From Candidatus Magasanikiibacteriota bacterium (GTDB lineage: Bacteria; Patescibacteriota; Patescibacteriia; Magasanikbacterales; UBA922): a stretch of 64,000 nt of DNA. The notes below the pieces were generated by a model that had not been told where the DNA came from, made no database searches, and saw only the letters and a list, made by a program, of their open reading frames with translations. Positions 10,128 to 40,878 of this stretch are shown piece by piece. Both the position numbers and the translations under genes were made by a program. The stretch spans positions 210,635 through 274,634 of the forward strand of contig DMXO01000002.1 in assembly GCA_003482855.1 (NCBI GenBank), given 5' to 3'. Each line of letters starts with the position of its first letter. Position 1 is the stretch's first letter.

Positions 10128-10231
10128 AGTACCTATATATTATCATATAGTAAGCATTTTTCAAAGATCAAATCTAGACCAGGCACGAGACACTTATTAA
10201 AACAAAAAACTCCATTTTATAGGAGCCATTT

Positions 10232-12573: not shown

Positions 12574-12872
12574 GGGTTAACCTCCCGTGTTGCGCCGTTG
12601 CACGACCTCTCCCTCCCCAGACCTGGGGACAATGCCCTGGCTAAGGGGCGGGAGATAGAAAGCACTAGCCACTGACCTGAACAACTTTGTTATTCACTCA
12701 GTGGCTAGCACTTTCAAAAATACACTATATTGGATTGAAAGGTACTTCACCACCAAACTTATACAGTTTGATGATGACGATGCCTTTCCCCTCGTCCCCA
12801 TTCAGACACGCGCTTGGTAGCGACGCGTCCGAACAGCGGGGACGAGGGAAGGCGGAAGGACATGCGGCTCGA

Positions 12873-14147: not shown

Positions 14148-14224
14148 CTGGATCTCTCCGTCGGTTGGCCCGCACTCCGTGAGTCGGGCTCTGGTTCTTG
14201 TTCTCGATCTTCTTGCTTGAAGGA

Positions 14225-14833
14225 TCAGTACGCCCAGTACACTCCGGCGCCGGCTTCCTGGCGGTAGAGCGGGTCATCCCCGCCACCGAACCAGCCCGGC
14301 CCGAAAGTGTAGCGCGCCTCGAACCCGAAGTGTTCCCACGGTTGCCATCGCATGGCTACCGAGGCCACGAACGAGTTCACGACGTCGCTGTTCTGGGTCG
14401 TCGACATGCGGTCGTAGCCGATACCGGCGAGGCACTGGATCTTGTCCAGATGCGTCCGGTACGCGGCCTGGATCAGGCCCGTCATGAAGAGGGTGTCGAC
14501 GCCCTGCTCCATACCACCGGTCTCCACGCGCATGTAGCCGAAGTTCCCGAGGAACTCGAGACCGAAGTGCTGGGTCAGGGAGACCCAGCCCATGATCTGG
14601 AGCTTCGGGACTCCGGTCTGCACCTCGCCCGCGCCGCTGAAGTAACCCAGGAGGGCCACCTTGAAGCGGAACGAGTCGAGCTCGTGCGACATGGCGACCG
14701 ACTCGATCGCCGCGCGCGGGATGCGCGGGTCCGGGACCTGATACACGGTCGGCGCGGGCTGGGCCCGCACCGAGTTGGGGTTGAGGAACAGGACGAGGAA
14801 CAGGACGCTCAGGAACAGGTTCGCGCAACGCAT
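14225..14833 (-). CDS. outer-membrane beta-barrel protein (OmpA-like/OMP_b-brl), start at MRCANLFLSV...
   Basis: Signal peptide MRCANLFLSVLFLVLFLNPNSVRAQ, alternating hydrophobic beta-strand pattern, C-terminal aromatic (…GVYWAY), SD GGAGGGAG upstream. Confidence 0.55.
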   Translation of the reverse strand: MRCANLFLSVLFLVLFLNPNSVRAQPAPTVYQVPDPRIPRAAIESVAMSHELDSFRFKVALLGYFSGAGEVQTGVPKLQIMGWVSLTQHFGLEFLGNFGYMRVETGGMEQGVDTLFMTGLIQAAYRTHLDKIQCLAGIGYDRMSTTQNSDVVNSFVASVAMRWQPWEHFGFEARYTFGPGWFGGGDDPLYRQEAGAGVYWAY

Positions 14834-15059
14834 CGGACTCCCTCCGTCTGGGTGTGTTCGCAACTCGCGACTCTCGAAACGAAAGACTATAAATGTCCTT
14901 CCGCACTCCGACCCACAAGGCCGGAGATTGGAAATGTGTCTCCTAAGCACTCATACATATACAAAAAATACATTGTATATGCATACGTACTTAGGAAAAC
15001 ATTTGTAAAGAACAAAGGAATTCTTACCCTGTACCTTTATGGTACTAGGGTTATTCCCA

Positions 15060-15125
15060 TTTTCTGACAACATCTGATACAGATATTGTCACAAAGCGGG
15101 TGGGGTGGGGTATCGTCGTAAACAG
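15060..15125 (-). terminator. GC-rich hairpin (gcgggtggggtat/ataccccacccgc) downstream of 15201..16691 gene
   Basis: 13-bp stem, about 25-nt loop, followed on minus strand by TTTGTG; sits in AT-rich spacer inside island. Confidence 0.4.
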
Positions 15126-15200
15126 TCTCAAACTCATACCCCACCCGCAGATGTCCGTGGATCCTCCCGGTTCCTCGGACGTCGTGTCAAAATGCCCTGG

Positions 15201-16691
15201 TCACGGGCAGGTGGCGAGCACCCAGTTGCGGGCGTCGGCGCAGCGGCGGGGGTCGCCGTTGACCTGGCACACCATCTGGGTGTACTCGCTCTTGCCGCAC
15301 ACGATCGTGGCGGCGCCGGTCACGTCGCCCGCGAAGCACTCGACCGCCTTCGAGTCCTTCTCGATGTAGGTGCCCGAGCAGGTGCCCGAAGCGGTCGGGG
15401 CGGCGGCGCCACCAGTGGGGGCGGTCGGGGCGACGGGGGCGGTCTCGTGCACGATGCGGGTCGTGTGGCTGGTGCGGGTCACCGTGTTGTGCACGTTGAT
15501 CTCGCCCTCGGCCGTCACGTCGCCCGCCTTGACCTCACCGGCGCGCACGATGCCCGCCTTGACCTCACCGGCCTCGACCGTCTCGATCGTGACCGGGAAG
15601 GTGCGGGGCGCGGCCTCGGCGGCGAGGCGGGCGGCCTCGGCGGCGGCGGCGACCTTCTGGGAGAAAGCCGCGTCGTCACGGGCCGACTTCACGTCGTCGT
15701 TGCTCGGGTTGAGGGCCCAGAGCAGGAAGAACGTGAGGAGCGCCGCGCTCCCGATGATGCCGGCCATGATCCACCACGGCCGGCTCGCCTTCTCCGCGCG
15801 CTTGGCGTCGTCGTCGCGGACGATCGACGGGTTCAGAGCGAGGAGCTCCTTCACCGTCAGGTCGCCGACGATGGCGTTGCCGCCCGAGCGCCCACCGTTG
15901 GTGATGTTGTCGCGGAGGGCGACGAACACGGTGCGCTCCTTGGGCTCGGCGGAGACGACGGGGGCGACGACGGTCTGCGAGGGGCAGAGCTCCTTCATGA
16001 GCCGGAGGCTCGTGAGGAGGTCGTCCTTGCCCGCGGTGCGCGCGCGCTCGAGGTCCTCGGCGCTGATGGCCGGGACCGTCGTCGTGGTGTGCGCGTCGTC
16101 GTGGCCGTGGCCGTGGTGGCCGCCGTCGTTGGTCTCGCGCTGGGCGAGGACGTCGGCGACGCGCCGCTCGATCCCCTTGCGGGTGAGCGTGGTCATCGGC
16201 TTGCCGGTGCCACCGATCAGCACGAGCTGCTCGGGGTCCGACTCGTCGATGCCGAGCACGTGACCGGTGTTGATCGCGTGCTGCTCGGCGCGGGGGTTGA
16301 GCTCCGCCTGCTGGACCTGCGGACCGCCGAAGACCACGTTGGTCGTGCGGTTGCTGGCCAGGAAGGCGAGGAGGTCGCTGAGGCCGGGCTCGCTGGTGCG
16401 GGCCGAGGCCGGGCGGCGGGGCTCGTCGGTGGACGGCTGGCGGCGGGGCTCGGGCTCGCGGCGGGTGTCGGTGCGGGCCGAGGCCGGGCGGCGGGTGTCG
16501 GCGTTGCTGCCGCGGGTCCGCTCGTCCTTGCGCTTCTTGTTGCACCGCTCCTCGGTGTGCCCGGGCTTGCCGCAGTACGCGCAGGTGACCTGCTCGCGCT
16601 CGGTGGCGGGGGCCGCGTCGTCGGTGTGGGCGGCGGCGGTGTCGGTGGTGATCTCGGGGGCCTGGGTGCTGGGGTCGGTCGCGGTCGTCAT
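15201..16691 (-). CDS. membrane protein with N-terminal CCHC zinc knuckle, Arg/Pro-rich linker, single TM and repeat-containing Cys-bearing C-terminal domain
   Basis: CAYCGKPGHTEERC = CX2CX4HX4C. RRPASART duplicated. TM WWIMAGIIGSAALLTFFLLWAL. AGEVKAG x3 tandem. SD GGGAGAGAG upstream. Confidence 0.55.
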   Translation of the reverse strand: MTTATDPSTQAPEITTDTAAAHTDDAAPATEREQVTCAYCGKPGHTEERCNKKRKDERTRGSNADTRRPASARTDTRREPEPRRQPSTDEPRRPASARTSEPGLSDLLAFLASNRTTNVVFGGPQVQQAELNPRAEQHAINTGHVLGIDESDPEQLVLIGGTGKPMTTLTRKGIERRVADVLAQRETNDGGHHGHGHDDAHTTTTVPAISAEDLERARTAGKDDLLTSLRLMKELCPSQTVVAPVVSAEPKERTVFVALRDNITNGGRSGGNAIVGDLTVKELLALNPSIVRDDDAKRAEKASRPWWIMAGIIGSAALLTFFLLWALNPSNDDVKSARDDAAFSQKVAAAAEAARLAAEAAPRTFPVTIETVEAGEVKAGIVRAGEVKAGDVTAEGEINVHNTVTRTSHTTRIVHETAPVAPTAPTGGAAAPTASGTCSGTYIEKDSKAVECFAGDVTGAATIVCGKSEYTQMVCQVNGDPRRCADARNWVLATCP

Positions 16692-17063
16692 GGTACTCTC
16701 TCCCTAGTCCTGCCCCTGGTGGGGGCGCAGTGAAAGCGCGCCCCACGTTGGGGCTTTGGTAACCTACCGTAGGCCTCGCGACACACGTCGCGTGACCATA
16801 TCCGGATACTGTATATGATCATAGAGATCATAGCCTGTACCCGGATATGGTATTTTATTTTTTTGTAGCTATTTTGACACGAATTCTTGTAAAGAGCGAC
16901 ACTCACCCTATTTTAGGATGAACAGAAGATTATATCATATATTGTGTAGTTTGTCAAGAGATAAAGGCTCTATATTTTCCCTCGGGAGAACAGATATTTT
17001 TTGCTTAATATAGAGAAAAAAATGAAAAACAAAAAAGGCTTTATTGAGCCAATTTTGCTATCA

Positions 17064-17329: not shown

Positions 17330-20300
17330 TTATCTATTTCCACCACGTGGTCCACCACCCCGAGGACCGCCGCCTCCACCACCTTTTTTACGCCCGCCTT
17401 GTCCTTGTTGTCCTCTGGCATTATCAGGTCTATTGTCAGGACGCTGACCACGATCCTGTTGTCCAGATCTATTGTCACTACCTTGTTGACCCTGACGTCT
17501 ATCATTCCCTTTCTTTTCTCTTTGTCCCCTATCTCGATTACTTTCATCTGAGCCACCACTCCTATCATTGTTTCTATCTCTACCGCCATTGCGTCGATCT
17601 CTGCCATTTGGTCGTCCACTGTCTCTATTGTTTGATCTGTTTGCAGACCCTTCGCCAGCACCAAGACCGAGATCATCACGAACCTGTTCATCGAGCAACG
17701 AAGCTACATCTATAGACATACGCGTCTGCATATCACGCGCAATATCTCGAGCTTGTGTACGAATAGCATCTGTTGCTTTGCGTAATGATCTATCACCACT
17801 CTCTTGTCCTAATCTTCGCACCAGTTCAAGTGCGGCAAGTTGTTTAGTAGCTTGTTCAAAATCTACCTTGTTTGTCTCTCCACCACGCGCTACATCTGGC
17901 ATCTCAGTACTACCAAACAATAACTCACGCGCCTGATCTCCGTTCAAAGACATCTTACTTACATCAAAAGATAGAGACCCTTTATCTTTTTTCACCCCAA
18001 TAGATCCATACGAACCAAGATTGAAATACGTAGTATCTGGATTTGCTTCAGATGTATCTGAGCCGGTGCCTTCAGCACTACCTTGTGCATGTGCCGTGTC
18101 ATCATCCATTGCTTCTACATCATCTGTCTGCTCTGCTTCATCTTGTGTTTGTGCAGGTGGTTGTGTCTCTACTACAGGAGCAGGAGTAGTACCTGCATCC
18201 ACTCTCGACGTAGAAGTTGAAGTAGTATCTCCCTCTCCAGCGGTAGGAACTTGTTCTCCTTGTCTTGCGCCCTTACGTTCGTACGCAGGACGAGGAGCAT
18301 CCTTCATACCACGAGACACATCTTCGAGTACAGGTCGTTCTCGTGTGGCAAAATATAGAGCTCCTGCTGCGAGCGCACCTCCACCAGCCACAGCATTGAG
18401 CATGGCAAGTCTACCATATGAAACATCAAACGATCGTCCATCTTCCATACCAAGTCTGACACCCTTGCCATCTGGTGTAGGCTCTGCATCTGTAGCACCA
18501 TCTACATGTATATTTGCTTCTTCGCCAGTATTGGTATTACGTACGGGTATATCTGCGCCACTACCAGTCACACGTGGATCTGCCACTGGCTCTACACGCG
18601 GTTCACGCGCGCGAGCTGCTGCCAATTCTTCAAGACGTTGCTGCGCATCTTCAGCCTGTGCTATCTGTGCCAAAGCAAGAGATTTACGATCAAGATCTCC
18701 GGTAGTAGGAGCATACTCATCAGCATCTCCTGTAGTACGCATACCACTGGCAATAAATCTATCTGGACTGCCACCGGTGCTTGTCTCGTTCATACCCATA
18801 TAGACAATTGGTCTACCTGGTTCTGCACGAAGTGGTGTCCTGCCACCTGGTTGATTATCAAACAATTTTACATTATCTGCTAAATAATCATCTCTGTTGG
18901 CATCATGCTGAAGTGCAGAACCGAGGCGTCGGATGAGATCACCACTACGACCACCTGCTGGCTGGTCAATAACCTGCGCTTTGTATTCTGCAAGGAAATC
19001 TGCAAGCGCCTTGTCTGTATCCTGCGGTATACCATCGGGAAATAATTTACCCAAAGATACACGATTGAATCCTTGACTCTGCAAAAATCTCAGTGCCTCG
19101 TCTGTATGCCCTGTCTTCATCATTTCTCCGACCATAGTGAGATCACGTTCGCGTTCAAAATGTAAAATCCATTGTGGATCACGAAACTTTGCCTCGGGGA
19201 ATAATGTATCTTCGCTACCTGTACCATGATCTGTGGCAGACTCAAGTACTGATCGCATAGCATCGGCATTGCCAAGACTCGGGTACGCGGTAACCCACGC
19301 ATCCATTTCTTTTGCTGCCGCAGGTGATAAATGAAATTCTTTTATGATATCGAGACGATCTATATCCCAACGAGCTGACTCGGGCACTGGCGGTACTTCT
19401 ATTGTCTCTGCTCGCGGAGTGGGCTCTCCTGATGGTGGTGCATCTACATCTCTGCCTCCATGTGCACCCACATCTGGTGATGTGTCGTGTGCATGATCTG
19501 CTACTTGAGCGCCTGTACCCGCTGCTGTTCCTGTTTCTTCTGGGATTCTTATGCCTAATTTTTCAAATGCCCATGCTCCAATGTCTTTGCTAAAATAGCC
19601 AAGACCAGCACCAATTACGCCACCGACAACCATACCTTTGAGAGCTCCTGCATGGCGTTTGATGAAGCCACCCTTATCTTTTAATTTATCAATAGTCTGT
19701 TGGCGTTCTGATTTGAGCAAGCTCACATCTGTATCAAGCTCTGCTAAAAGTGCTTCTGCTCCTGCATGTCTCAGGCGTTTGTCGTATGTCTCATATTCAA
19801 TACTGCGCAATACGTTACGTGCGCGCACTCGCAATAGTTCGCTATTGTTCAATAGACCAAGAGACATGGCAACACGAATATCTTTTGCGAGTTTCTGAAG
19901 ACCGGTATCACTTAGGCTTTCAGTCTTCTTGCTATCTATGCCAAGCGTAGACAATGCAAGCTCTGCTTCATCTATACGTCTCTCTACCTCTGTACGCATC
20001 TCTTCTTCACGTGCTCTAATATCTTTCATATTGCCCAGATGCGTTCCCAAATATGCACCCGCAAGTCCAAGCACTGCAGCGCGTACTTCTGGTGCAAAAC
20101 TTGATGCGACACCTATGGCTCCACCAGCAATAGCGCCCATTACTTTTTTGGCTAATTCATTTTGATCAAGTACCTCGCCATCGGCTTTGAATAATGATTG
20201 TACATCGCCACGCTTCAAAGCCATAGCTTTTTGTAATACGCGCATCATGCCAGGATTCTCACGAATGATATCTGCGACTGCGTCTACTGTCTGGCCACTA

Positions 20301-23300
20301 TACAACTCTGAAACCAAATGATCGAGACGAGCGTCCTGAGCTTCTTCGCGGGATATCTCTCCACGCGCAGCTCGAGTACGTGCATCGAGCGCTATTTCAC
20401 GACGCCCAGCTTGCAAAAGCAATATTGCCTGCGCGCGTATAGTATCATCATCCACTACTTCTGCACCAAGTCGAGCCTCATCGCGAGTAACTGCAGAAGA
20501 TGCATCTGTGCGACTCACACGATATGAAGCAGTGATGAGACCATCACTCATAAATACCGCAAGACGATCTATAAGTGTCTTGTCTCCACCTTGTGGAGTT
20601 CCATCAGCCCCTTTTGCCAGACCAAATCTTTGCATAAGTCTCTGACGAAATTCTGGCGTATTTCTAAATGTTTGTAATATTTCATCTTCTTTTTGTTTAA
20701 TTTTTTCTTCCACGTCTTGAGTACGATTGAGTGTGCGTTCACGTCCCGCTTTGGTGCTTCGCTCTGCTGCATACCAACCACCAATAGCTCCAGCTATGCC
20801 ACGCACTACCATCGCAGGAGCTTTGGCAACCGTGCCTGCAAGAGACGCGAGTCCGACTACAACAGCAGCAGGACCTACCGTGACTAAAGCATTTTTGGCT
20901 TTCTCCCACACTTTGGTCATGCCACCATGATAAAACTTTTTCATGTCTTGAAGTACATTGGTTTCTTCGCTCGCGACAAACAAACGGATACCATACATAG
21001 TCTCACGGTATCCTTGTTGCTTTTCCCAAAAACCAAGAAAATCTTCTGCATCTGTATACCCAGCACGACGAGCCTCTTCGCGGAGACGGCGTTCATCCAC
21101 ACCTTCTTGTCTAAATATATGTGTAATGTATTCTTCTACATCGCCTGCTGCAGTAGGATCTGTCATGAGATGCAATAATTTCGTGTATCTCTCACGGCCA
21201 ATTATTTCAATCAACACATGTGGGCGTATGTCTACTATGCCATGCTCAAACTCTTCGACAGTCCCCTCTGGCATATTGTTCAATCTGCGATGCAAATCTT
21301 CGGCTGCATTGTATTTGTCTGCAGCACTACTCCATACCGTACCGTCAGGAGTAACTTCAAACGTTTCTCCGTGGGATATATGCGCACGCATCACCTGTTG
21401 TCTATCTATGACTGAGTCAGTATAGAGCGGTTTGAGACCGCGCGCCTGCAGTTGATCCGGGCTTTCGATGCAAAAACGTTTGATACCAAACAGATGCTCA
21501 TCTGGCGATATAATGACGCACATACCTTGGTTACGCGCTTCTGCACATAGGGCGGATAACCTTCCAACGACTGTGGTGTCCAATGGTGCATCTGCGCTAC
21601 CAAAATTGCCCACGTCAAACCCAAACACGGAAGATAATACAGATGCACCTACACCTGGAGGCATACCATATTCACGCGCTAGGCGTGCCATCGTAGCTTC
21701 TGGCGTTTCAACAGCTGTCTCTGCCGAAGCACTATCTGACACTGCAGTACTTTCTCCTGTTGTCTCTTCAATATCAGGAAGTTCTATTCTCGGATGTGGT
21801 TTGCCTACTTCAGAAGATTTGGAAACCAAACCTCTCAAACGCTGGCCTATAGATTTTTTGCGTACAGCAAAATTGTATGGATCATCTGATACGAATTCAT
21901 ATCCTTTCGCAGGATAATACGTATTGTTACCATCTTCATCACGTGCCGCGTATACTCTTCCTGTATCCAATGCATATGAAAGATCAACAAAAGGAATATC
22001 TTCTTCTTCAGCACGTTTTATTGAATCTATTTGTTCTGAATTCAACAAATTTTGCATCATATCTTCAAACCACCAATCAGGATCTTCTGCTCCATCCAAT
22101 GATGATACATGGATCCTCGAAACATCCGGATGTTGTTCACGAGTATGTCTAAACTGCGCCAATAATCTGCGCATTTCTTCACGGCGCTCTGATGGTATAT
22201 ATGGCCTTCCATGCCAATCACGCCCTTCGTCATCCATGAGACTCACACACGCAAACATAGCATCAGCAAGACGTCCGAGTTCTTGCGCAGGATTCTCCTG
22301 CTCATGTGCTTCTACGTCAGCACCCTGCTCTGCTGGTGATTGTTCACTAGCCTGCACCACATCACGCACAGCAATTCTTCTATCGGACAAGACTACTACC
22401 TCTTTGCCTTGTGACCTCATTATATCTATATACTGCTGTACAACTTCGGCAGAAAACTCTGCAGGGATATCATTGATTTCAAATCCCAAAGTGCGCAATT
22501 CTTCTGGAGACATACTTTCCAAAGGGATATCTACATCGTAAACTCTTGAAGAATCCGCGGATGCAGAATCTGCAGAAGCGTCAGCATGACTTGCTTCATC
22601 CTCACGAGCTGTATCACCCTCTCCCTCACCATGCAGAGCTGGAAAATTATCACCGGATAATGCTTCATCACCTGTTCGTCGCGCAGGAAGATTATCCCTG
22701 CCATCAGGGATAGCTGGCAGATGATCTGACGGCAAAACATCCTCTGGAGCTTCGGCACTAGACTGTGTAGCTTTCACAGCAGAGGGACCAAATACTGATT
22801 CGGGATTACCACCAAGCACACGAACTAATTCGCGACTCGAGTCTTTGATAGTAGGATCAATATATAATGCAGTACCCCTCATTTCATGTTGTCCATTTGG
22901 TGATATATGTATTTCAGTAATATATCTATCATGTTCACCAATAGAACGATGTATAATACCTAGTAACCTCTGCGCATACTCAGGGCTCAACATGCCTTTT
23001 GGTTTGGTAAATTCACCCCAAGACTCCCTCAACCTGCCCCAATTTTTTGCAAATGTGTTTATTCTAAAACGAGGATCTATTTTCTGAAGTTCTTTTTCTG
23101 CAGGACCCAAAATATCCAACAATGCTTTTTCTACACCTACTGGTTCTTCGGGATTGGTAGATCGACCTGCGTTCGGGTCTGCCTGTTCTCCACCCGGAAC
23201 TGAAGCCTTTTCTTTTCTGCGTCTTTTTATTTTTTCTGATTCACCTTTTTTGGTTGCATCTGATGACTCAGTAATTTTTACTACTTCTATAGATAAATTA

Positions 23301-24931
23301 TCTGCAGAACCTGCTTTCCATTTTTTCTTTTTCATGAATTGTCCTGGTGCATACTCAATATCAAATGGACCGTCAGCATTGCCACGCGCAAATGTCTCTT
23401 TCCATAAACGTTCTTGGACTTTACGCGCATCACCACCCTCTTCTGCTGTCCATTTCTCTACTTCATATTCAGATACAATGTCCCACAAACCATCTGACCC
23501 GAGCACTATAATATCTCCATCTTGACCTTGAAATTCAATTTGTTCTGGACCTTGCTCATGTATATCTGCTGTACCATGTCCGAGTGAACGAGAAATAATG
23601 TGATCAATAGGACTATTGAATATCTGCCCTGTTTCGTATCCTTCACGTATGGTTTCAAAAAAAGCGCGTAATTCCTCGTCATCTCCCACTGCTCTTCTAT
23701 GTCCCATATAAAATATGCGGGCCCAATGATCCTGCGTATCTTCTTTACTCAAATCAAGAAGATCCGGATTTTCGCGCATCTGGGCCACGACTTCTACCGC
23801 AAAATTATGCATCTTTGTCGTGCCCTCTTCTAACTTTTTGCCACCACGCACCGTCATTGCTTTTGAATCTCCTATATATGCAAGTTGAACTTTCCTATCT
23901 CTATCTATGCGAGCGATAACTGCTGCGGTGTTGCCATTTGATAATTCATTCTCAATCCTCGCATGACCATCAATCATTGCCTCCCTCAAATCTGTCTCTC
24001 CAGCTCTTATCATACCTACCACTGCCTCATTGACAAGACGACTTGCCTGGCGTCCGTTGCCCATACCACCCGCACCATCGATAACACCTGTCACGAGAGC
24101 GCCATCAGGTCCGACCACGGTGAGTATGCTATCTTCATTTTTTGTTTCAATAAAATTTTCAGGAGTCCGTATTTTCTTGTTTGCAGCATCTCTATTATAC
24201 TCTGTATATTTGGAAAATGGTCCTCCATAATGTGAACGCCCGTCTACAACCGCCTGCTCAGTGACGATATGTATGTCTGTCTTATTTTCTTTATTATCTG
24301 GATCTGTTACAAATCTATCTTCAAACATAATTTGACGTGATTCTCCAGGTTTGAGCAACTCACGTGATTCTATGCGTACTTTTTCAGGAGTTAATTCACC
24401 CAAAGGCAAGTAATTGATTTCTGTGGAACCTAATATCCCCAAGGATAATAATCCCTTCTCTGTATCTGGTATTTCTTTTACTATATATTTCCTCACACTA
24501 CCATCAGAATCTGTATACTCAATTACATCCCCCACACTCAGACTTCCAGCAGGTGTTTCTATTTTTCCTTCACCGATTCCAATACCCCGGACCAAAGCCT
24601 CTGCAACATCCCCAATTTCACCATCTGTTAAAGTTGGTTTCTGTAATAATACTGCCAATTTCTCTTCAGCCGCGTGCAATTTTCGACTAAACTGATCAAG
24701 ATGTATTTGTAATTCGTCTGCATGACTCATTCTTTGTGGTATTTCACCCAAAGACTGCACGAGTTCATCTCTCTCTTGCTGTAAATCCTCAATCTGGTGA
24801 CCGAGTGCCTGTATCCGTGCTTCAAAATCACGATGGGCTTCGTGAGCTTCTTCTCGGTTACCAAAGGATTTTCTCATTTCTTTTCTTTTGACTCCATCTG
24901 GTGCTTGCTTTGGTGATGTTTCTTCTGGCAT
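17330..24931 (-). CDS. giant (2533 aa) multidomain protein: N-terminal coiled coil, PP2C-family Ser/Thr phosphatase domain, acidic linkers, several Gly-zipper hydrophobic segments, C-terminal RGG/RD-rich low-complexity tail
   Basis: PP2C motifs VIDGAGGMGNG and IIVLGSDGLWDIVSE. Tail ...GGRKKGGGGGGPRGGGPRGGNR. Uninterrupted 7.6-kb ORF. Confidence 0.8.
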   Translation of the reverse strand: MPEETSPKQAPDGVKRKEMRKSFGNREEAHEAHRDFEARIQALGHQIEDLQQERDELVQSLGEIPQRMSHADELQIHLDQFSRKLHAAEEKLAVLLQKPTLTDGEIGDVAEALVRGIGIGEGKIETPAGSLSVGDVIEYTDSDGSVRKYIVKEIPDTEKGLLSLGILGSTEINYLPLGELTPEKVRIESRELLKPGESRQIMFEDRFVTDPDNKENKTDIHIVTEQAVVDGRSHYGGPFSKYTEYNRDAANKKIRTPENFIETKNEDSILTVVGPDGALVTGVIDGAGGMGNGRQASRLVNEAVVGMIRAGETDLREAMIDGHARIENELSNGNTAAVIARIDRDRKVQLAYIGDSKAMTVRGGKKLEEGTTKMHNFAVEVVAQMRENPDLLDLSKEDTQDHWARIFYMGHRRAVGDDEELRAFFETIREGYETGQIFNSPIDHIISRSLGHGTADIHEQGPEQIEFQGQDGDIIVLGSDGLWDIVSEYEVEKWTAEEGGDARKVQERLWKETFARGNADGPFDIEYAPGQFMKKKKWKAGSADNLSIEVVKITESSDATKKGESEKIKRRRKEKASVPGGEQADPNAGRSTNPEEPVGVEKALLDILGPAEKELQKIDPRFRINTFAKNWGRLRESWGEFTKPKGMLSPEYAQRLLGIIHRSIGEHDRYITEIHISPNGQHEMRGTALYIDPTIKDSSRELVRVLGGNPESVFGPSAVKATQSSAEAPEDVLPSDHLPAIPDGRDNLPARRTGDEALSGDNFPALHGEGEGDTAREDEASHADASADSASADSSRVYDVDIPLESMSPEELRTLGFEINDIPAEFSAEVVQQYIDIMRSQGKEVVVLSDRRIAVRDVVQASEQSPAEQGADVEAHEQENPAQELGRLADAMFACVSLMDDEGRDWHGRPYIPSERREEMRRLLAQFRHTREQHPDVSRIHVSSLDGAEDPDWWFEDMMQNLLNSEQIDSIKRAEEEDIPFVDLSYALDTGRVYAARDEDGNNTYYPAKGYEFVSDDPYNFAVRKKSIGQRLRGLVSKSSEVGKPHPRIELPDIEETTGESTAVSDSASAETAVETPEATMARLAREYGMPPGVGASVLSSVFGFDVGNFGSADAPLDTTVVGRLSALCAEARNQGMCVIISPDEHLFGIKRFCIESPDQLQARGLKPLYTDSVIDRQQVMRAHISHGETFEVTPDGTVWSSAADKYNAAEDLHRRLNNMPEGTVEEFEHGIVDIRPHVLIEIIGRERYTKLLHLMTDPTAAGDVEEYITHIFRQEGVDERRLREEARRAGYTDAEDFLGFWEKQQGYRETMYGIRLFVASEETNVLQDMKKFYHGGMTKVWEKAKNALVTVGPAAVVVGLASLAGTVAKAPAMVVRGIAGAIGGWYAAERSTKAGRERTLNRTQDVEEKIKQKEDEILQTFRNTPEFRQRLMQRFGLAKGADGTPQGGDKTLIDRLAVFMSDGLITASYRVSRTDASSAVTRDEARLGAEVVDDDTIRAQAILLLQAGRREIALDARTRAARGEISREEAQDARLDHLVSELYSGQTVDAVADIIRENPGMMRVLQKAMALKRGDVQSLFKADGEVLDQNELAKKVMGAIAGGAIGVASSFAPEVRAAVLGLAGAYLGTHLGNMKDIRAREEEMRTEVERRIDEAELALSTLGIDSKKTESLSDTGLQKLAKDIRVAMSLGLLNNSELLRVRARNVLRSIEYETYDKRLRHAGAEALLAELDTDVSLLKSERQQTIDKLKDKGGFIKRHAGALKGMVVGGVIGAGLGYFSKDIGAWAFEKLGIRIPEETGTAAGTGAQVADHAHDTSPDVGAHGGRDVDAPPSGEPTPRAETIEVPPVPESARWDIDRLDIIKEFHLSPAAAKEMDAWVTAYPSLGNADAMRSVLESATDHGTGSEDTLFPEAKFRDPQWILHFERERDLTMVGEMMKTGHTDEALRFLQSQGFNRVSLGKLFPDGIPQDTDKALADFLAEYKAQVIDQPAGGRSGDLIRRLGSALQHDANRDDYLADNVKLFDNQPGGRTPLRAEPGRPIVYMGMNETSTGGSPDRFIASGMRTTGDADEYAPTTGDLDRKSLALAQIAQAEDAQQRLEELAAARAREPRVEPVADPRVTGSGADIPVRNTNTGEEANIHVDGATDAEPTPDGKGVRLGMEDGRSFDVSYGRLAMLNAVAGGGALAAGALYFATRERPVLEDVSRGMKDAPRPAYERKGARQGEQVPTAGEGDTTSTSTSRVDAGTTPAPVVETQPPAQTQDEAEQTDDVEAMDDDTAHAQGSAEGTGSDTSEANPDTTYFNLGSYGSIGVKKDKGSLSFDVSKMSLNGDQARELLFGSTEMPDVARGGETNKVDFEQATKQLAALELVRRLGQESGDRSLRKATDAIRTQARDIARDMQTRMSIDVASLLDEQVRDDLGLGAGEGSANRSNNRDSGRPNGRDRRNGGRDRNNDRSGGSDESNRDRGQREKKGNDRRQGQQGSDNRSGQQDRGQRPDNRPDNARGQQGQGGRKKGGGGGGPRGGGPRGGNR

Positions 24932-29404: not shown

Positions 29405-29795
29405 GGGGATGACAGGGTTCGATAGGTGGACCTATGTTATCTACTATATGCATGTCGAGGTGGTATACGATCCTCGTAAAACCCGTATACAATTCTCAAG
29501 TGCAAACTTGGTAAGTCGAGTGAAAAACGCAGTAGCGCAAGCTTTCCGCGTCCCAACATTCGCATCTGTAGTGGCCTAATAGGCCTGCTACCATCATTCC
29601 CATGATACTCGGTAATGGATGAATGGTGTCAACCTATCGAGTGTAGGATATATGTGCTTTCTGTCGCATATACTCGAAATAAATACAGGATCAGTTGATT
29701 GCTATTTTGCTGATTTCTAAGCAATCAATAAAACACCAAACCAGCTATACATGTAGATTGTGGTGGTAACCCATCTAGACCCGGGTTCAATTCCC
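29405..29795 (+). ncRNA. ssrA: tmRNA (ssrA)
   Basis: 5' GGGGATGACAGGGTTCGATAGG. 3' T-arm ccggg-ttcaatt-cccgg then acceptor catctcc pairing with 5' ggggatg incl. G3.U wobble. Internal ORF ending in stop inside ggcctaataggcc hairpin. CCA not encoded (..tccaCGA). Confidence 0.7.
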
Positions 29796-29934
29796 GGCAT
29801 CTCCACGAAAAGCGGTGCAACCGCTTTGAGTGACGCGTGATGAGCGAAGCGAATTTTACGCGTCACAACCAATAACTGCTTTTTCAACGGCACCGCCTCG
29901 TGGCGATGCCATAGTAAAATTAGCAAGGAGGATT

Positions 29935-30198
29935 ATGTATTACGTTGTTTATTTTTTAGAATCTACAAAATATCCACAACGTCATTATATAGGTTACACG
30001 ACAAATTTAAAGAATAGGATTCAATACCACAATAAAGGATTAGTTACATCGACAAAAAATTTCAAACCATGGAAAATAATATATGCTGAGATGTATCTGA
30101 ATAAAAAAGATGCAATGGGAAGAGAGAAATTTTTGAAAAGTGGATCCGGATGGAAATTTCTAAAAAAACAATTGACACATTATTTTCAAAATAAATAA
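29935..30198 (+). CDS. GIY-YIG nuclease-family protein (small, about 87 aa)
   Basis: YYVVYFLES...YIGYTTNLKNRIQYHNKG GIY-YIG motif; perfect SD aaggagg 5 nt upstream of ATG 29935 (listed ORF start 29830 is upstream extension). Confidence 0.7.
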   Translation: MYYVVYFLESTKYPQRHYIGYTTNLKNRIQYHNKGLVTSTKNFKPWKIIYAEMYLNKKDAMGREKFLKSGSGWKFLKKQLTHYFQNK

Positions 30199-35102: not shown

Positions 35103-36464
35103 ATGAAAAAAGCCCTCTTTATCGGCCGCTTCCAACCATTTCATCAGGGGCACTTGGATGCTCTAAAACAAATCTCTGAATCCGAGGTTATTATTGGCAT
35201 TGGCAGTTCACAATACAGTGAAACTGACGACAATCCGTTGAGTTTTGAGGAGCGCAAAAAAATAATTGAAGAAAAACTTAAAAATTTAAATCTAAACTAC
35301 AAAATCATTGGCATCCCTGATATCCACGAAGAAACAGAATGGGTTGATCATGTAAAAAAAATAGTTGGAAATTTTGATATGGTTTATACCGGCAATGAAT
35401 TGGTACAGACATTGTTTGAACAAAAAGGATATGTGGTCCATGGAATCAAAAAAAATATTGACATCAGTGCCACAGAAATACGCACAGAAGCCAAACGACT
35501 TTTCGAAAAATTAGGAAAAACCAAACGCACTTTTAGTTATTGTCTGGGCATAGCGCCTATTACTCTTGAAATAAACCGACTCAAAAAAAAACAAAACGCA
35601 ATCATCCTCGCCCACTCGTACCAAACAACCGACATTATGTACGGTGTTGCAGACTTTATTGGTGACTCATACGGGCTCGCAAAGATTGCATCACAACATG
35701 ATGCACAAAAAATAATTTTCTGTTCTGTTCATTTCATGGGTGAAACTGCAAAAATTCTTAATCCTGAAAAAGAAGTCTTCGTTCCTGCGGTTGCAGGATG
35801 TTCTTTGGCAGAAAGCATTACTGCCGAAGATGTACGAAACTTAAAAACAAGATATCCGGGAATACCCGTGGTTACCTATGTAAATACAAGCGCTGAAGTA
35901 AAAGCAGAGAGCGACATCTGTTGTACTTCGTCTAACGCGCTAAAGATTATTGAATCATTGCCGGATGAAACTATCATCTTCATTCCAGACATTCTCATGG
36001 GTCAAAATTTACAAAAACAAACAAAGAAAAAACTAATCTTATGGAATGGTACCTGTATTGTTCACGAACAATTTGATCGTCAGGCAGTAGACAATATCCG
36101 TGCACAATTCCCCGGTACCAAAATTCTCGCACATTACGAATGTACATCTTCTGTTGCGGATGCAGTAGATATGGTTGGTAGCACAGGAGATATGCTCAAA
36201 TATGTAAAAGAAAATCCAGCAGAACACTATATGCTCATCACAGAATGTGGAATTACTGACAGAGTTCAAACAGAATTTCCAGACAAACACATTGTAGGTA
36301 GTTGTCAGCTGTGTCCATATATGAAACAGATCAAGTTGGAGGATGTGTTGAATGCACTTAAAAGTCCTAAGAAAGAACAGATTATTGAATTGGATAAAGA
36401 AATTTTAGAAAAAGCGAAGAAAAGTTTGGACAGAATGATGGAAATAAGTACCAAAGCAAAATAA
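35103..36464 (+). CDS. nadA: bifunctional fusion: NMN adenylyltransferase (archaeal-type NadM, N-term) + quinolinate synthase NadA (C-term)
   Basis: N-term GRFQPFHQGHLDAL cytidylyltransferase motif. C-term ILAHSYQ..HFMGETAKIL..CIVHEQF NadA signatures. Single uninterrupted 453-aa ORF. Confidence 0.75.
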   Translation: MKKALFIGRFQPFHQGHLDALKQISESEVIIGIGSSQYSETDDNPLSFEERKKIIEEKLKNLNLNYKIIGIPDIHEETEWVDHVKKIVGNFDMVYTGNELVQTLFEQKGYVVHGIKKNIDISATEIRTEAKRLFEKLGKTKRTFSYCLGIAPITLEINRLKKKQNAIILAHSYQTTDIMYGVADFIGDSYGLAKIASQHDAQKIIFCSVHFMGETAKILNPEKEVFVPAVAGCSLAESITAEDVRNLKTRYPGIPVVTYVNTSAEVKAESDICCTSSNALKIIESLPDETIIFIPDILMGQNLQKQTKKKLILWNGTCIVHEQFDRQAVDNIRAQFPGTKILAHYECTSSVADAVDMVGSTGDMLKYVKENPAEHYMLITECGITDRVQTEFPDKHIVGSCQLCPYMKQIKLEDVLNALKSPKKEQIIELDKEILEKAKKSLDRMMEISTKAK

Positions 36465-36553: not shown

Positions 36554-37429
36554 ATGACCAAACGCCAAAAACTCACAAAACACTTCAATCAATACGAAAA
36601 GCTCACGCTCAAAAATCCAAAATACCTCCGCCAAGTCAAACGTCTGACAGAGGATTTTTTGGCTGAAGATTTGGATACCCGGGGTGATATTACGAGTGAC
36701 ACAGTAATAAAAGGAAACCCAAAAGTCACAGCTATAGTAAAGGCAAAAGAAAACGGCATTGTCGCTGGATTAGAAGAAACAAAATGGTTTCTTACAAGCT
36801 ACAAGCTACAAGCTACGAGTTACAAAAAAGATGGAAATAAAGTAGGAAAGGGAGAAAAAATATTTCAACTTAAAGGTGGTATAAAAGATGTTCTAAAAAT
36901 TGAACGGACAATTCTCAATCTACTTCAAAGAATGTCAGGTATCGCAACACAGACTACCAAACTTGTTAAACTTACCCACGGTAAAGTCCTTATCTGCCCT
37001 ACCCGTAAAACACAATGGGGCCTACTTGATAAAAAAGCCGTTGTTCTCGGTGGCGGAGGAACACATCGGCTTGGACTTTACGATTGGATTTTGGTAAAAG
37101 ATAATCACATCACTCACTCTAAAACCTATAACCTAAAACCTATAACCTCTTTCTGGGAGATTGAAGCAAAAACAAAAAAACAAGTTTTAGAATTTGCCAA
37201 ATTAAATCCAGATGCTATCATGTTTGATAATTTTAAACCAAAAAATATCAAAGGGATATTAGAAGATACTGAGATATTGAGATATTCAAAAGATATCATT
37301 TTTGAAGTGTCGGGTGGAATTACGGAAAAAAATATTACCGAGTATGCAAAAACTGGAGTGGATATTATTTCGCTCGGTTCACTCACCCACTCTACAAAGG
37401 CTTTAGATATTAGTTTAGACATTATTTAA
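36554..37429 (+). CDS. nadC: nicotinate-nucleotide (quinolinate) pyrophosphorylase
   Basis: LQRMSGIATQT...LGGGGTHRLGLYDWILVKDNHI; carries in-frame heptamer repeat insertions. Confidence 0.85.
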   Translation: MTKRQKLTKHFNQYEKLTLKNPKYLRQVKRLTEDFLAEDLDTRGDITSDTVIKGNPKVTAIVKAKENGIVAGLEETKWFLTSYKLQATSYKKDGNKVGKGEKIFQLKGGIKDVLKIERTILNLLQRMSGIATQTTKLVKLTHGKVLICPTRKTQWGLLDKKAVVLGGGGTHRLGLYDWILVKDNHITHSKTYNLKPITSFWEIEAKTKKQVLEFAKLNPDAIMFDNFKPKNIKGILEDTEILRYSKDIIFEVSGGITEKNITEYAKTGVDIISLGSLTHSTKALDISLDII

Positions 37430-37472
37430 AACTACTTACTATTTACTGCTTACTATTTACTAAAACTATTCT

Positions 37473-39005
37473 ATGGGCAAAAAAAATGATACGATCAAAG
37501 CCGATTTTTTAGTAATAGGATCAGGCATTGCTGGCCTGAATTTTGCGTTGGAAGCAAGCAAATATGGCACTGTCGCGATTGTAACCAAAAAAGAACTCAT
37601 GGAAAGTAACTCAAATTATGCTCAAGGTGGCATTGCTGCAGTTTTGGATACAATGGACAGCTTTGAAAAACATATTGAAGATACTATGAAAGCTGGGTGC
37701 TACTTGAATGACAAAAAAGCTGTAGAAATAATGGTGAGAGAAGCTCCCAAACAAATACAAAAACTCATAGATATTGGTGTCGGATTTAGCAAAGAAAACA
37801 ATAAATTGTCTCTTACCAAAGAAGGCGGACATTCTATGCGGCGTATCGCGCATGTGCATGATACGACAGGTAAAGAAATTGAACGGGCGTTGATTCACCA
37901 AGTACGGCATAATGAAAACATCTCTATCTTTGAATCGTACGTAGCATTTAGACTACTAACACCCGAGCACAAAAGCACAAAAGCACAAAAGCACTGTGTC
38001 GGCGCTTTGGTTCTCAATACTGAAAAAAATGAAGTGACTACATTTATTGTCAAGGCAACGATACTCGCGACAGGCGGAACAGGACAAGTATACAAACGAA
38101 ATTCAAATCCAAAAATTGCAACAGGTGATGGCGTGGCACTTGCACATGAAGCAGGGGCAGAAATTTGTGACATGGAATTTATACAATTTCATCCCACAGC
38201 TCTTGCAAAAAAAGGCAAACCAGCACTGCTTATTTCTGAGACTGTACGTGGCGAGGGCGGTATCCTTGTTCACAAAGATGGCAAACGATTTATGCCAAAC
38301 TACCATAAACTCGCCGAGCTCGCACCACGTGATATTGTCTCGCGCGCGATGTTTGAGGAATTAAAAAAAGGTCCAGTTTACCTCGACATCCGACATAAGG
38401 GAAGTACCTATATAAAACAACGATTCCCCTATCTCTATAATGAACTCTGGTGGTACGGAGTAAAGATGGATAAAGATCTTATTCCTGTCGCACCAGCCGC
38501 ACACTTCACCTGCGGTGGAGTTCATACAAATCTAAATGGCGAAACAAATATTCCCGGACTTTTTGCGTTTGGTGAAGTCGCGCATACCGGCGTTCATGGA
38601 GCGAATCGGTTGGCATCGAATTCGCTCTTAGAGTGTATGGTATTTAGTAGTAGGGCAGTAAATTCAACTAAAAAATATATCAGAAAAATGCAAAATGCAA
38701 AATGCAAAATGCAAAAAATCCCTATAACCTATAACCTAAAACCTAAAACCTTGAATGAAATTAGAAAGATGACATCTTCGATTCAAAAACTTATGTGGAG
38801 CAATGTTGGTATCGTCCGTGAAGAAAAAAAGATGAAAAAAACATTAAAAATATTAGATAGATATGAAACAAATATTAAACAGGTACTAAAGACTGGAATA
38901 AACAGAGACATTCTTGAATTAAAAAATATCTGTAATGTTGCCAAACTTATTACACAGGCGGCGCTTGAAAGAAAAGAAAGCGTAGGAGCTCACTTTATAG
39001 TATGA
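37473..39005 (+). CDS. nadB: L-aspartate oxidase
   Basis: DFLVIGSGIAGL FAD motif, YAQGGIAA, RLASNSLLE; carries in-frame repeat insertions. Confidence 0.85.
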   Translation: MGKKNDTIKADFLVIGSGIAGLNFALEASKYGTVAIVTKKELMESNSNYAQGGIAAVLDTMDSFEKHIEDTMKAGCYLNDKKAVEIMVREAPKQIQKLIDIGVGFSKENNKLSLTKEGGHSMRRIAHVHDTTGKEIERALIHQVRHNENISIFESYVAFRLLTPEHKSTKAQKHCVGALVLNTEKNEVTTFIVKATILATGGTGQVYKRNSNPKIATGDGVALAHEAGAEICDMEFIQFHPTALAKKGKPALLISETVRGEGGILVHKDGKRFMPNYHKLAELAPRDIVSRAMFEELKKGPVYLDIRHKGSTYIKQRFPYLYNELWWYGVKMDKDLIPVAPAAHFTCGGVHTNLNGETNIPGLFAFGEVAHTGVHGANRLASNSLLECMVFSSRAVNSTKKYIRKMQNAKCKMQKIPITYNLKPKTLNEIRKMTSSIQKLMWSNVGIVREEKKMKKTLKILDRYETNIKQVLKTGINRDILELKNICNVAKLITQAALERKESVGAHFIV

Positions 39006-39699: not shown

Positions 39700-40839
39700 A
39701 TGAAAATCCTTGGCATTGAATCCTCATGTGACGATACATCTGTCGCGTTACTCGATATAACAGATGAAAAAATAGAAATCTTGGCTGAAAAAACAGCAAG
39801 CCAAATTGATGTACACAAAAAATATGGTGGTGTGGTACCAGAAATTGCCGGACGAAAACATGCTGAAAAAATTATTCCTCTTGTTGATCATATTCTCGAG
39901 GAAGCCCATATTACAAAACCCGATGTTATTGCGGTAACTTCAGGACCAGGTCTTATTACTGGTCTTGTAGTGGGAGTTGAAACAGCAAAAGCGCTTTCAT
40001 ATTTGTGGAATGTACCAATCGTTGCAGTAAACCACATTGAAGGGCATATACACTCCGTATTGATTGGACTTCAGCAATCAGACTTCAGCAATCAGAATAA
40101 AAAGAAATCTGAAGTCCGAAGTCCGAAGTCAAAAATAGATTATCCAGCTTTATGTATTATAGCTTCTGGCGGACATACAGAATTGATCTTTGTGTCAGAC
40201 GTAAATAAATATGAACGAATTGGCGGGACAGTAGATGACGCGGCGGGAGAATGTTTTGATAAAGTAGCAAAATTGCTCGGATTTGATTATCCAGGAGGAC
40301 CGAAAATTTCAAAATTTGCAGAGGAAGGAAACCCACGTGCAATTGAATTTCCACGACCTATGATTAATAGTAAAGATTTTAATTTTAGCTTTGCGGGTCT
40401 CAAAACTTCAGCACTGTATTGGCTCCGAGATAATCAACTGTCTGCGATGAATATAATTCCGTATAAGCTACCCACAGGAATCTATGGACAGACGCAAGAA
40501 CCTCCCACAATCAACGATTTCTGCGCAAGCTTTGAACAAGCAATAATTGATGTTCTTGTCACAAAAACCCTTAAAGCAGCGAAGCAATACAAACCAAAAA
40601 CTATTATTCTTGGCGGTGGAGTTTCTGCAAACAAAAAATTAAGAGAAACTCTTGAAATGACAATCAAACAAGAAACTCCGAACTCCGAACTCCGAACTCC
40701 GAACTTGAAGTATGCCATGGACAACGCCACCATGATCGCGGTTGCCGCGTACCATCATGCAAAAAATAAAGAGTTTACCTCATGGGACAAGTTGGAAGCG
40801 AATCCTAATTGGAAAATAACAGATTTCACAAATTTCTAA
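39700..40839 (+). CDS. tsaD: tRNA N6-adenosine threonylcarbamoyltransferase TsaD (start MKILGIESSCDDTSVAL)
   Basis: Kae1/TsaD N-terminus and HIEGH motif; two repeat-encoded in-frame insertions; listed ORF 39520 start overlaps previous gene. Confidence 0.85.
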   Translation: MKILGIESSCDDTSVALLDITDEKIEILAEKTASQIDVHKKYGGVVPEIAGRKHAEKIIPLVDHILEEAHITKPDVIAVTSGPGLITGLVVGVETAKALSYLWNVPIVAVNHIEGHIHSVLIGLQQSDFSNQNKKKSEVRSPKSKIDYPALCIIASGGHTELIFVSDVNKYERIGGTVDDAAGECFDKVAKLLGFDYPGGPKISKFAEEGNPRAIEFPRPMINSKDFNFSFAGLKTSALYWLRDNQLSAMNIIPYKLPTGIYGQTQEPPTINDFCASFEQAIIDVLVTKTLKAAKQYKPKTIILGGGVSANKKLRETLEMTIKQETPNSELRTPNLKYAMDNATMIAVAAYHHAKNKEFTSWDKLEANPNWKITDFTNF

Positions 40840-40878
40840 CAAATTATACAAATTACGAATTACTAGTTACTAATTACC

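Follow-up and report, generated by a model that had tools for sequence, protein, structure and literature searches.

The nadC and nadB genes of a groundwater Candidatus Magasanikbacteria genome, a member of the Candidate Phyla Radiation (CPR), each carry within their reading frame a 28-nt block built from the same two heptamers, TAAAACC and TATAACC (assembly GCA_003482855.1, contig DMXO01000002.1; the window is the whole 64,000-nt stretch of that contig analysed here). We consider it probable that these blocks belong to old in-frame heptanucleotide arrays, which are kept homogeneous by slippage together with length-preserving ectopic gene conversion between partner arrays. The identity of the nadC and nadB blocks in the window would, with the same degree of confidence, represent one such partnership, and neither the footprint of a transposing element nor the product of a recent paste. 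Hereafter WIN denotes the window genome, L007, L011, L209, L210, L212, L217 and L218 its array-bearing relatives, and L211, L129 and L130 the outgroups.

The nadC block (37120-37147, + strand) consists of TAAAACC, TATAACC, TAAAACC and TATAACC (unit order ABAB), and the nadB block (38723-38750, + strand) of TATAACC, TATAACC, TAAAACC and TAAAACC (BBAA). Placed in register (offset 1,603 nt) they agree at 26 of 28 positions, the longest exact string common to both being the 20-nt AACCTATAACCTAAAACCTA (starting at 37123 and 38726, respectively), and their flanks are unrelated. An initial annotation, made from the letters of the window, had reported these near-identical blocks, and its coordinates, strand and gene names all proved right: the ORF (open reading frame) at 36554-37429 (+, 291 aa) encodes quinolinate phosphoribosyltransferase, NadC (PDB matches, E=5e-36), and the one at 37473-39005 (+, 510 aa) L-aspartate oxidase, NadB (PDB matches, E=3e-116). 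Both ORFs are intact, each holds three arrays, and the blocks are translated as KTYNLKPIT (nadC) and ITYNLKPKT (nadB). Tandem Repeats Finder (TRF) delimits a 7-nt unit in 4.3 copies at 37119-37148 (nadC) and in 4.4 copies at 38721-38751 (nadB), in agreement with the exact-run analysis, so that both blocks, as head-to-tail copies of a unit of 1-9 nt, are heptanucleotide simple sequence repeats (SSRs). The four-unit TAWAACC pattern occurs twice in the window against 0.00 expected (none of 100 dinucleotide shuffles reached the observed count). Taken singly, the heptamer shows no enrichment (22 matches, including 8 within the blocks, versus 18.4 +/- 4.2 expected), and tandem dimers are confined to the two blocks (6 versus 0.12 expected). 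These counts rule out composition and chance as the cause of the blocks; the annotation's judgement that they were unlikely by chance is thereby borne out, and the circumstance it had named as refuting (a block common at a rate explained by composition) does not obtain. An assembly artefact is likewise ruled out, as six independent assemblies agree over the block region (99.99-100% identity).

Within the proteins, the nadC block lies between the KDNHI motif and FWEIE (the site termed here the +560 hotspot), where, by alignment to PDB structures, the array takes the place of the segment that follows the KENHI motif. The nadB block encodes residues 418-426, in the linker joining the domain that binds flavin adenine dinucleotide to the C-terminal helical domain. 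In the AlphaFold2 model of NadB these residues fall within a coil (408-427; predicted local distance difference test, pLDDT, 56-70) with helices at 380-407 and 428-446 on either side. A further array of nadC (the +240 hotspot) aligns with the segment 'niqitwlysdaq' of the quinolinate phosphoribosyltransferase structure 3tqv, which is probably a structural strand.

The composition of the blocks follows in part from the reading frame. Both the pure (TAAAACC)n and the pure (TATAACC)n array contain stop codons in 6/6 frames, and the ABAB and BBAA blocks have exactly one open frame each. Because a 7-nt unit moves the phase by one with every copy, each cyclic trinucleotide is read as a codon once per three units; the unit standing in phase 0 is TATAACC (TAA changed to TAT) in both blocks as well as in the orthologous L007 nadB array, since a pure TAAAACC array would carry TAA there. 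The A/T variant is thus imposed by the reading frame, and the second TATAACC of each window block is not frame-forced. In line with this logic, when 185,579 species genomes were scanned for three tandem TAWAACC units (variant position restricted to A or T), at least 120 stretches came to light. Among the 123 arrays of three or more units listed from public genomes, the pure ones (cyanobacteria, Bacteroidota and others) never lie within ORFs, whereas the mixed ones are found in long ORFs that belong mostly to CPR bacteria (Magasanik-, Yanofsky-, Gottesman- and Saccharibacteria, Paceibacterota), and always read ..TYNLKP... In at least 15 other CPR ORFs that contain TAWAACC the phase, copy number (3-8) and flanks vary. 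We discarded the occurrence of the same peptide in NadC and NadB as evidence, as a pure heptamer array gives one and the same cyclic 7-aa peptide in any frame, and only one frame is open in the mixed blocks. As a separate observation, an in-register recombination of the two blocks (36554-37133 joined to nadB) would yield an in-frame NadC(1-193)-NadB(424-510) fusion ORF, which follows from the single open frame of each block; no such fusion or deletion variant occurs among the six assemblies.

We found that heptamer arrays are a general property of this locus in the clade. Ten Magasanikbacteria loci (198 kb) contain 67 period-7 arrays, compared with 37 in 77 control loci (819 kb), i.e. a density ~7.5x higher. 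The controls encode distant NadB relatives (46-50% identical) and were obtained by a metagenome scan with the NadB alignment, which had three close loci among the matches listed. The AT-rich part of the controls holds 6 arrays in 263 kb (the density in Magasanikbacteria being ~15x greater), which rules out AT-richness as the driver. Period 7 (n=67) is over-represented with respect to chance and to the neighbouring periods (period 6 n=3, period 8 n=17, period 9 n=16), and its length histogram has an additional mode at 25-32 nt, which is absent for periods 6, 8 and 9. Inside ORFs of at least 150 codons lie 45 of the 67 arrays, and copy number stays, with one exception, between 2.9 and 5.0 in coding and non-coding arrays alike. 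The sense strand of the units is poor in G (5% versus 19% in the surrounding genes; GGGTTAC of L217 is an exception), and stop avoidance was rejected as the cause, because the enumeration of all heptamers predicts 19.5% G under that constraint. The syntenic 21.5-kb locus of L211 (GCA_001783045.1; 49% GC), itself a Magasanikbacterium, has no period-7 arrays, and L129 and L130 (45% GC) have one or two; the trait is clade-specific and not phylum-wide. An extreme local density was noted outside the clade, in Candidatus Yanofskybacteria (L024, 2387-4588), where eight different heptamer arrays fall within 2.2 kb.

In alignments of NadC, NadB and TsaD (the latter involved in the synthesis of N6-threonylcarbamoyladenosine, t6A) from the syntenic locus of twelve genomes, the arrays recur at fixed positions: nadC +240, nadC +560 (between KDNH and [FW]xEIE), two to three nadB sites (including the linker before IQxLMW) and three tsaD sites. 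The nadC +240, nadC +560, nadB linker and tsaD offsets bear arrays in 8-9 genomes, nadE also carries arrays, and all ORFs are intact in the 12 genomes. The outgroups L211, L129 and L130 are non-repetitive at both nadC hotspots, with a segment of equal length at +240 and a longer one at +560, and in several clade members (WIN, L209 and L210) the tsaD site before DFCASFEQ is likewise occupied by a longer segment free of repeats. As array-free sites thus hold equal or longer non-repeat sequence, the arrays are not net insertions.

Between species, the units that occupy one and the same site may be unrelated. At nadC +560 four unit families occur among 8 genomes: beside the TAWAACC units, A[A/G]ATTTC is found in L209, L210, L212 and L007, GGGTTAC in L217 and CACTTCC in L218. 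The L011 array at this site (TAAAACC, CATAACC, TAAAACC, CATAACT) has the ABAB order and the flanks of WIN, with a T to C change in both B units; L209 carries (CAAATTT)5 and L210 (CAGATTT)5, both perfect, the A form recurring in L007 and the G form in L212. At nadC +240 the TACAAGC of WIN corresponds at equal offset to TACAAGT in L007 (one substitution in every unit), while L011 has CTACAAC/CTAAAAC and L218 AACCTAT. The nadB array of L007 (TAAAACC, TATAACC, TAAAACC, TAAAACC) is identical to that of WIN at 27 of 28 positions (with TTG next in both), and the nadB array of L218 (TAAAAGC, TATAAGC, TAAAAGC, TGTAAGC) is the WIN unit with C changed to G in every copy. Such differences of one base in every unit at orthologous sites, between arrays of which many are perfect, indicate that the arrays homogenise faster than they diverge. 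Furthermore, the existence of a counterpart of the nadB block in L007 and of the nadC block in L011 means that neither block is a recent event confined to WIN. The first nadB linker array (AAAATGC in WIN) is CAATTAC in L007 and L218, TACAAGC in L210, ACTTATC in L212 and ACGGGTT in L217; the site of the AGCACAAA array of WIN nadB reads AACACAAA in L007; tsaD +390 holds TTCAGCA and GAAGTCC arrays in L217, and CAATTAC arrays identical to their own nadB linker arrays in L007 and L218; the tsaD +975 site has ATTCCTT-class arrays in L210 and L007.

The partner sites of different genes were found to change their unit together. In L217, the closest relative of WIN (NadB 78% identical), the nadC +560 (GGGTTAC)4.1 and nadB linker (ACGGGTT)3.6 arrays have a 24-nt exact match, so the same pair of sites is TAWAACC/TAWAACC in WIN and GGGTTAC/GGGTTAC in L217. 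In L007 the nadB linker and tsaD +390 are identical over 39 nt (AAACAATTACCAATTACTAATTACCAATTACCAAAAATT), including the variant unit TAATTAC, and in L218 the arrays at these two sites consist purely of CAATTAC and match exactly over 28 nt; TAATTAC must therefore have arisen after the L007/L218 split and is now present at both L007 sites. Other instances of sharing include AAGTTAC at nadC +240 and in tsaD of L007, ACCTATC in nadE and tsaD (29 nt) and ACTTATC at two nadB sites (25 nt) of L212, and TAWAACC at nadC +240, nadC +560 and tsaD of L011 (three copies in an 8-kb locus, compared with two in the 64-kb window). For the 84 period-7 arrays of the 12 genomes (one ~20-kb locus per genome, 'within genome' meaning within that locus), unit classes are shared in 15 of 395 within-genome pairs and in 29 of 3091 between-genome pairs, a ~4x excess (permutation p=0.00015) that persists when WIN and L011, which were ascertained for the feature, are left out (13/334 versus 18/2012, p=0.00085). 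For random heptamers of matched composition the rate of sharing is 0.37%, and the test is conservative, given that orthologous sites raise the between-genome figure. The arrays thus resemble a family under gene conversion both in being more alike within than between genomes and in showing derived variants in both copies that are absent from the orthologous pair of a relative (L007 versus L218; WIN versus L217). Over short times they are stable all the same. Two samples of the L007 organism (L007 and L008) differ by 14 substitutions, none of them in arrays, and by no indels, and the consensus sequences of the six assemblies of the window organism show no array indels or copy-number differences, so that the copy-number polymorphism typical of SSRs was not seen in either set of consensus sequences.

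On these grounds we propose the following course of events. The ancestral unit of both blocks may have been TAAAACC, and the blocks would be part of clade-wide period-7 arrays of ~25-35 nt that overwrote tolerant segments in nadE, nadC, nadB and tsaD, and that are found in ORFs of other CPR bacteria too. Such arrays would originate through the slippage process that is thought to favour 7-nt units in bacteria. Slippage-type events would build and homogenise the single array, and the partners would be kept alike by gene conversion in a shifted register or by template switching, acting among sister copies or from one partner array to another at a distance of 1-3 kb, while the unit sequence drifts or is replaced between species. 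What the data themselves establish is the anatomy of the arrays, the logic of the frame, the hotspots with their long-resident, inherited arrays, the concerted changes and the excess of sharing within genomes; at the molecular level we infer a combination of slippage with RecA-type or template-switch conversion. Homogenisation would have to be length-preserving, since a change of plus or minus one unit inside an essential ORF is presumably lethal, and the array size of ~30 nt may correspond to the minimum tract still able to recombine, as the minimal efficient processing segments of Escherichia coli would suggest. The arrays themselves are probably tolerated and not functional. The initial annotation had attributed the two blocks to copy/paste, by gene conversion or a mobile micro-element, rather than to slippage. 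Gene conversion in the broad sense is supported (by the GGGTTAC pair of L217, the 39-nt identity of L007 and the ~4x sharing excess), and the micro-element finds no support in terminal inverted repeats, target-site duplications, defined ends or a hairpin; the opposition to slippage is a false one, as the making and homogenising of arrays still requires processes of the slippage type. The annotation had overlooked the frame constraint and the clade-wide context.

Several observations weigh against this scenario. Conversion tracts of ~30 nt are near the lower limit of homologous recombination established in E. coli, and the flanks of partner arrays are without homology, so that the proposal does not account for the first copy into a site. 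The growth of a 7-nt array by one unit in frame is impossible in an essential gene, which makes an origin inside ORFs hard to explain. The distribution of units is moreover incongruent with the protein phylogeny: nadC +560 carries TAWAACC in WIN and L011 but not in the sister genomes L209 and L210, and the nadB linker carries TAAAACC in WIN and L007 but CACATAA in L209 and L212, which calls for additional steps, be it lateral recombination, differential loss or convergence. The near-identity of the nadB array between WIN and L007 is odd for free drift when the NadB proteins are just 64-72% identical, and the depletion of G on the sense strand goes beyond stop avoidance. Finally, all within-genome comparisons come from one syntenic locus of ~20 kb, in which local and genome-wide copying are inseparable.

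Among the other explanations, we regard as unlikely a discrete mobile micro-element, i.e. a heptamer cassette of ~28-30 nt that inserts into or replaces its target by a transposase-, integrase- or reverse-transcriptase-like activity. The occurrence of unrelated units per hotspot in close relatives (as in the four families at nadC +560) does resemble the replacement of cassettes, and homology-driven conversion would hardly produce it; the array size varies narrowly around ~30 nt in coding and non-coding arrays alike; WIN and L011 have equal ABAB architecture and boundaries although they sit in different sister pairs; and a true in-frame mini-element (a ~75-nt hairpin, described below) is present in nadC and nadB of L007. 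In cyanobacteria, elements of 21-27 nt within heptamer arrays (small dispersed repeats, SDRs) have reportedly been proposed to be mobile. The two blocks, on the other hand, lack inverted termini, conserved ends and secondary structure (the nadC block region folds as DNA at -0.6 kcal/mol, z=+0.82), and the target-site duplications that the initial annotation had suggested looking for are absent from their flanks. They therefore have neither the palindrome nor the ends of transposable elements of the miniature inverted-repeat type (MITEs) or Rickettsia palindromic elements (RPEs). They differ from each other in unit order, TAWAACC varies in phase, copy number and flanks in other CPR ORFs, the locus has no candidate enzyme linked to it, and orthologous sites that differ by one substitution per unit point to vertical descent accompanied by homogenisation. 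A phage-borne element was rejected, the 20-mer AACCTATAACCTAAAACCTA having one match, an intergenic one, among 2.9 million viral contigs. Quite improbable, in our estimation, is also a dedicated, or at least specific, process of CPR bacteria that writes and rewrites heptamer cassettes of ~30 nt at hotspots in essential genes and keeps partner sites identical. It would act on pairs such as nadC +560/nadB linker, nadB linker/tsaD +390 and nadC +240/tsaD before DFCASFEQ, and would go beyond passive slippage with occasional conversion, amounting either to a novel form of sequence replacement, templated and non-homologous, or to direct repeats kept for programmed in-frame rearrangement.

We think it equally doubtful that the arrays arose in situ by independent slippage and converged without any copying, on the grounds that few heptamers are allowed (stop-free, A-rich, G-poor, with a benign peptide). 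The frame constraint does account for the A/T variant pattern, TAWAACC arrays exist in many phyla (at least 120 stretches), the between-genome sharing of 0.9-1.2% exceeds the random 0.37% (so that a favoured pool of units exists), and nadC +240 offers a stepwise path from CTACAAG through CTACAAC to CTAAAAC. Convergence leaves unaccounted for the ~4x higher sharing within genomes (p=0.00015), the site pair that has TAWAACC in WIN and GGGTTAC in L217, the inclusion of a variant unit in the 39-nt identity of L007 and the second TATAACC of each window block, which the frame does not force. Partner sites were seen to change their unit together twice, and a 7-nt unit cannot expand stepwise in an essential ORF without a frameshift. 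Selection on the arrays or on the identity of the two sites (as binding sites for proteins or nucleic acids, as peptide motifs, or as direct repeats for programmed in-frame deletion or fusion) appears very unlikely. It would be in keeping with the 27/28 identity between WIN and L007 despite their deep divergence, with a G-depletion that exceeds the stop-avoidance prediction, with the characteristic array size and with the in-frame NadC-NadB fusion ORF that block recombination would yield. That fusion is automatic given the single open frame per block, deletion variants are absent from the six assemblies, different species have unrelated units at one site (so that neither a particular sequence nor a particular peptide is kept), and some clade members and the outgroups have intact enzymes without arrays at these sites. 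The least credible possibility, in our view scarcely worth entertaining, is that changes in heptamer copy number toggle nadC, nadB and tsaD on and off as phase-variable contingency loci. In-ORF SSRs with a unit not divisible by three are described as the classical substrate of phase variation in PMC3315296 and PMC4692102. The genes concerned here are housekeeping genes and not surface or virulence genes, the arrays are short (4-5 units), the ORFs are intact in 12/12 genomes, with no frame-shifting repeat-number alleles among these consensus sequences, and copy number does not differ among the six assemblies or between the two samples of the L007 organism (which are separated by 14 substitutions).

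The arrays share features with several known systems and coincide with none of them. Dispersed repeats that evolve in concert by gene conversion are well known from rRNA operons and tuf genes, where the homology extends over hundreds to thousands of bp. As in those cases, the copies are alike per genome, diverge between species and carry variants in both copies (TAATTAC in L007); in contrast to them, the tracts are of ~30 nt and the flanks unrelated. The tandem heptamers of cyanobacterial short tandemly repeated repetitive (STRR) sequences are said to be a lineage trait, and the SDRs are repeats of 21-27 nt that occur in many places, also within genes, and are proposed to be copied around the genome, reportedly with conserved secondary structure, compensatory changes and defined ends. 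The blocks described here have neither structure nor defined ends and so do not qualify as SDRs as these are reportedly defined. TAWAACC arrays occur in many cyanobacteria too, but among the matches listed those are pure and non-coding. An excess of heptanucleotide SSRs in bacteria, explained by polymerase slippage, is reported by Rehm et al. (2015; PMC4692102, citing Mrazek 2007). Such repeats resemble the present arrays in their head-to-tail 7-nt units, in the excess of period 7 over 6, 8 and 9, in their proposed origin by slippage and in marked differences of sequence and length at one locus between related species. The examples given there (GGGAATC in Xanthomonas, GGGGAYT in Nostoc) are mostly intergenic, G-rich and often long, whereas two-thirds of the arrays studied here lie in intact housekeeping ORFs, have a G-poor sense strand and 4-5 units, and occupy conserved hotspots with units common to several genes. 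The RPEs, palindromic selfish DNA of ~150 bp that sits in frame in genes and adds a peptide (Ogata et al. 2000, reviewed in PMC10969869), are likewise short repeats in frame in unrelated metabolic genes of a reduced-genome bacterium, with the proteins left intact. They differ from our arrays, which are ~30 nt long, tandem and non-palindromic, and replace a host segment instead of lengthening it. In Borgs, the in-ORF repeats all have unit lengths that are multiples of three, vary in copy number within populations and are, almost without exception, unique per genome (Schoelmerich et al. 2023; PMC9879509). They share with the present arrays perfection, an A bias, preservation of the ORF and the creation of new low-complexity or disordered segments, with both slippage and dedicated mechanisms under discussion (PMC9879509). 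The arrays differ from them by a 7-nt unit (hence not divisible by three) that is read in three frames, by a stable copy number and by units common to several genes. In the literature searched, we came across no earlier account of heptamer arrays lying in frame at conserved hotspots of CPR/Patescibacteria genes.

As a rule, repeats whose unit length three does not divide are either eliminated from essential genes or serve as on/off switches. The 7-nt arrays described here, read in all three frames, are stably embedded in NAD-biosynthesis and tRNA-modification enzymes across a whole CPR clade, where they replace native segments, and concerted evolution takes place on tracts of ~30 nt, partner sites in different genes changing their unit together. 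Should our interpretation be correct, these loci would constitute a natural system for very-short-tract gene conversion or template switching in uncultured organisms, and a source of rapid, lineage-specific turnover of protein segments in reduced genomes. They would also carry the long-noted and unexplained heptamer excess of bacteria into coding DNA, and would call for caution in CPR annotation and phylogenetics, since array-encoded segments align and yet are not residue-homologous.

The two blocks stand within a dense cluster of repeats. About a dozen TRF arrays with periods of 7, 8 or 14 lie between 36.8 and 40.9 kb of the window, and a mere 6.8% of its length accommodates 8 of its 11 period-7 arrays (P=6e-8). 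When exact arrays of 2.5 or more units are counted, period 7 has six, period 8 two and period 6 one, with none at periods 9-15. The comparison with Rfam gave no RNA family overlapping with the arrays. All arrays mentioned in what follows are given on the + strand. In nadC, the +240 hotspot is occupied by TACAAGC x4.7 (36793-36825; peptide TSYKLQATSYK), and a period-8 array of AGATATTG x2.9 lies at 37264-37286. The latter has a 17-nt exact match with a non-coding period-8 array of the same unit, TGAGATAT x3.1, at 689-714 (upstream of ORF 772), 36 kb away, indicating that sharing extends beyond heptamers and adjacent genes. The nadC-nadB intergenic region holds ACTACTT/ACTATTT x4.6 (37431-37462; TRF). 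In nadB, a perfect AAAATGC x4.6 array (38685-38716; peptide KMQNAKCKMQK) directly 5' of the block is the first array of the linker hotspot, and a perfect period-8 array of AGCACAAA x3.6 (37966-37994; peptide EHKSTKAQKH) encodes a low-confidence surface loop (pLDDT <50 at residues 168-170 of the NadB model). The tsaD gene (39700-40839, +, 379 aa; mapped from L001 coordinates 12228-13367) has three arrays, among them the 14-mer GACTTCAGCAATCA x2.1 followed by GAAGTCC x2.9 at the +390 hotspot (40067-40130) and a perfect AACTCCG x4.6 array at the +975 hotspot (40674-40705; peptide ETPNSELRTPN). A TACTAAT x4.4 array lies between tsaD and prs (40847-40877; TRF).

Repeats of other kinds were encountered at the same locus in L007, where a ~75-nt palindromic element sits in frame in nadC and nadB (9683-9775 and 11470-11565). 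It folds at -28.7 kcal/mol (z=-7.8), shows a compensatory stem change (CGGCC-TTT-GGCCG versus CCGCC-AGA-GGCGG) and can be classed as an in-frame mini-element resembling the RPEs; other NadB orthologues have comparable GC-rich peptide insertions (e.g. ACLPARQGISHACRQAG, TGTERLVPSEVEGSRS). The same genome has an intergenic repeat of ~115 nt in three copies (2492-2608, 7405-7522 and 8877-8994; both orientations, 94-97% identical) that contains ATAACGA heptamers and looks MITE-like. Small four-helix-bundle genes of the bAvd / 23S_rRNA_IVP type adjoin the locus in L212 (14102-14482) and L210 (17431-17829); the family includes accessory proteins of diversity-generating retroelements, and no link to the arrays was established.

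Elsewhere in the window, a GC-rich island of ~6.5-7 kb (10000-17000; 62-66% GC in a genome of 36-42% GC) contains four tiled ORFs on the + strand (10531-12675, 12687-14267, 14198-15067 and 15105-16733) with no Pfam match, and is situated between an O-antigen-ligase-like gene and a giant ORF of 2533 aa (17330-24931, - strand); its context recurs in at least 8 contigs from independent assemblies, which rules out a chimera. A transfer-messenger RNA (tmRNA) gene (29405-29806; tag AVAQAFRVPTFASVVA) is immediately followed, upstream of infC, by a small GIY-YIG/T5orf172 ORF (29830-30198) that may be a homing-endonuclease-like gene. Furthermore, nadA (35103-36464) is fused to an N-terminal cytidylyltransferase-like domain of the nicotinamide mononucleotide (NMN) adenylyltransferase type in an ORF of 453 aa, a fusion that is kept across the Magasanikbacteria loci.

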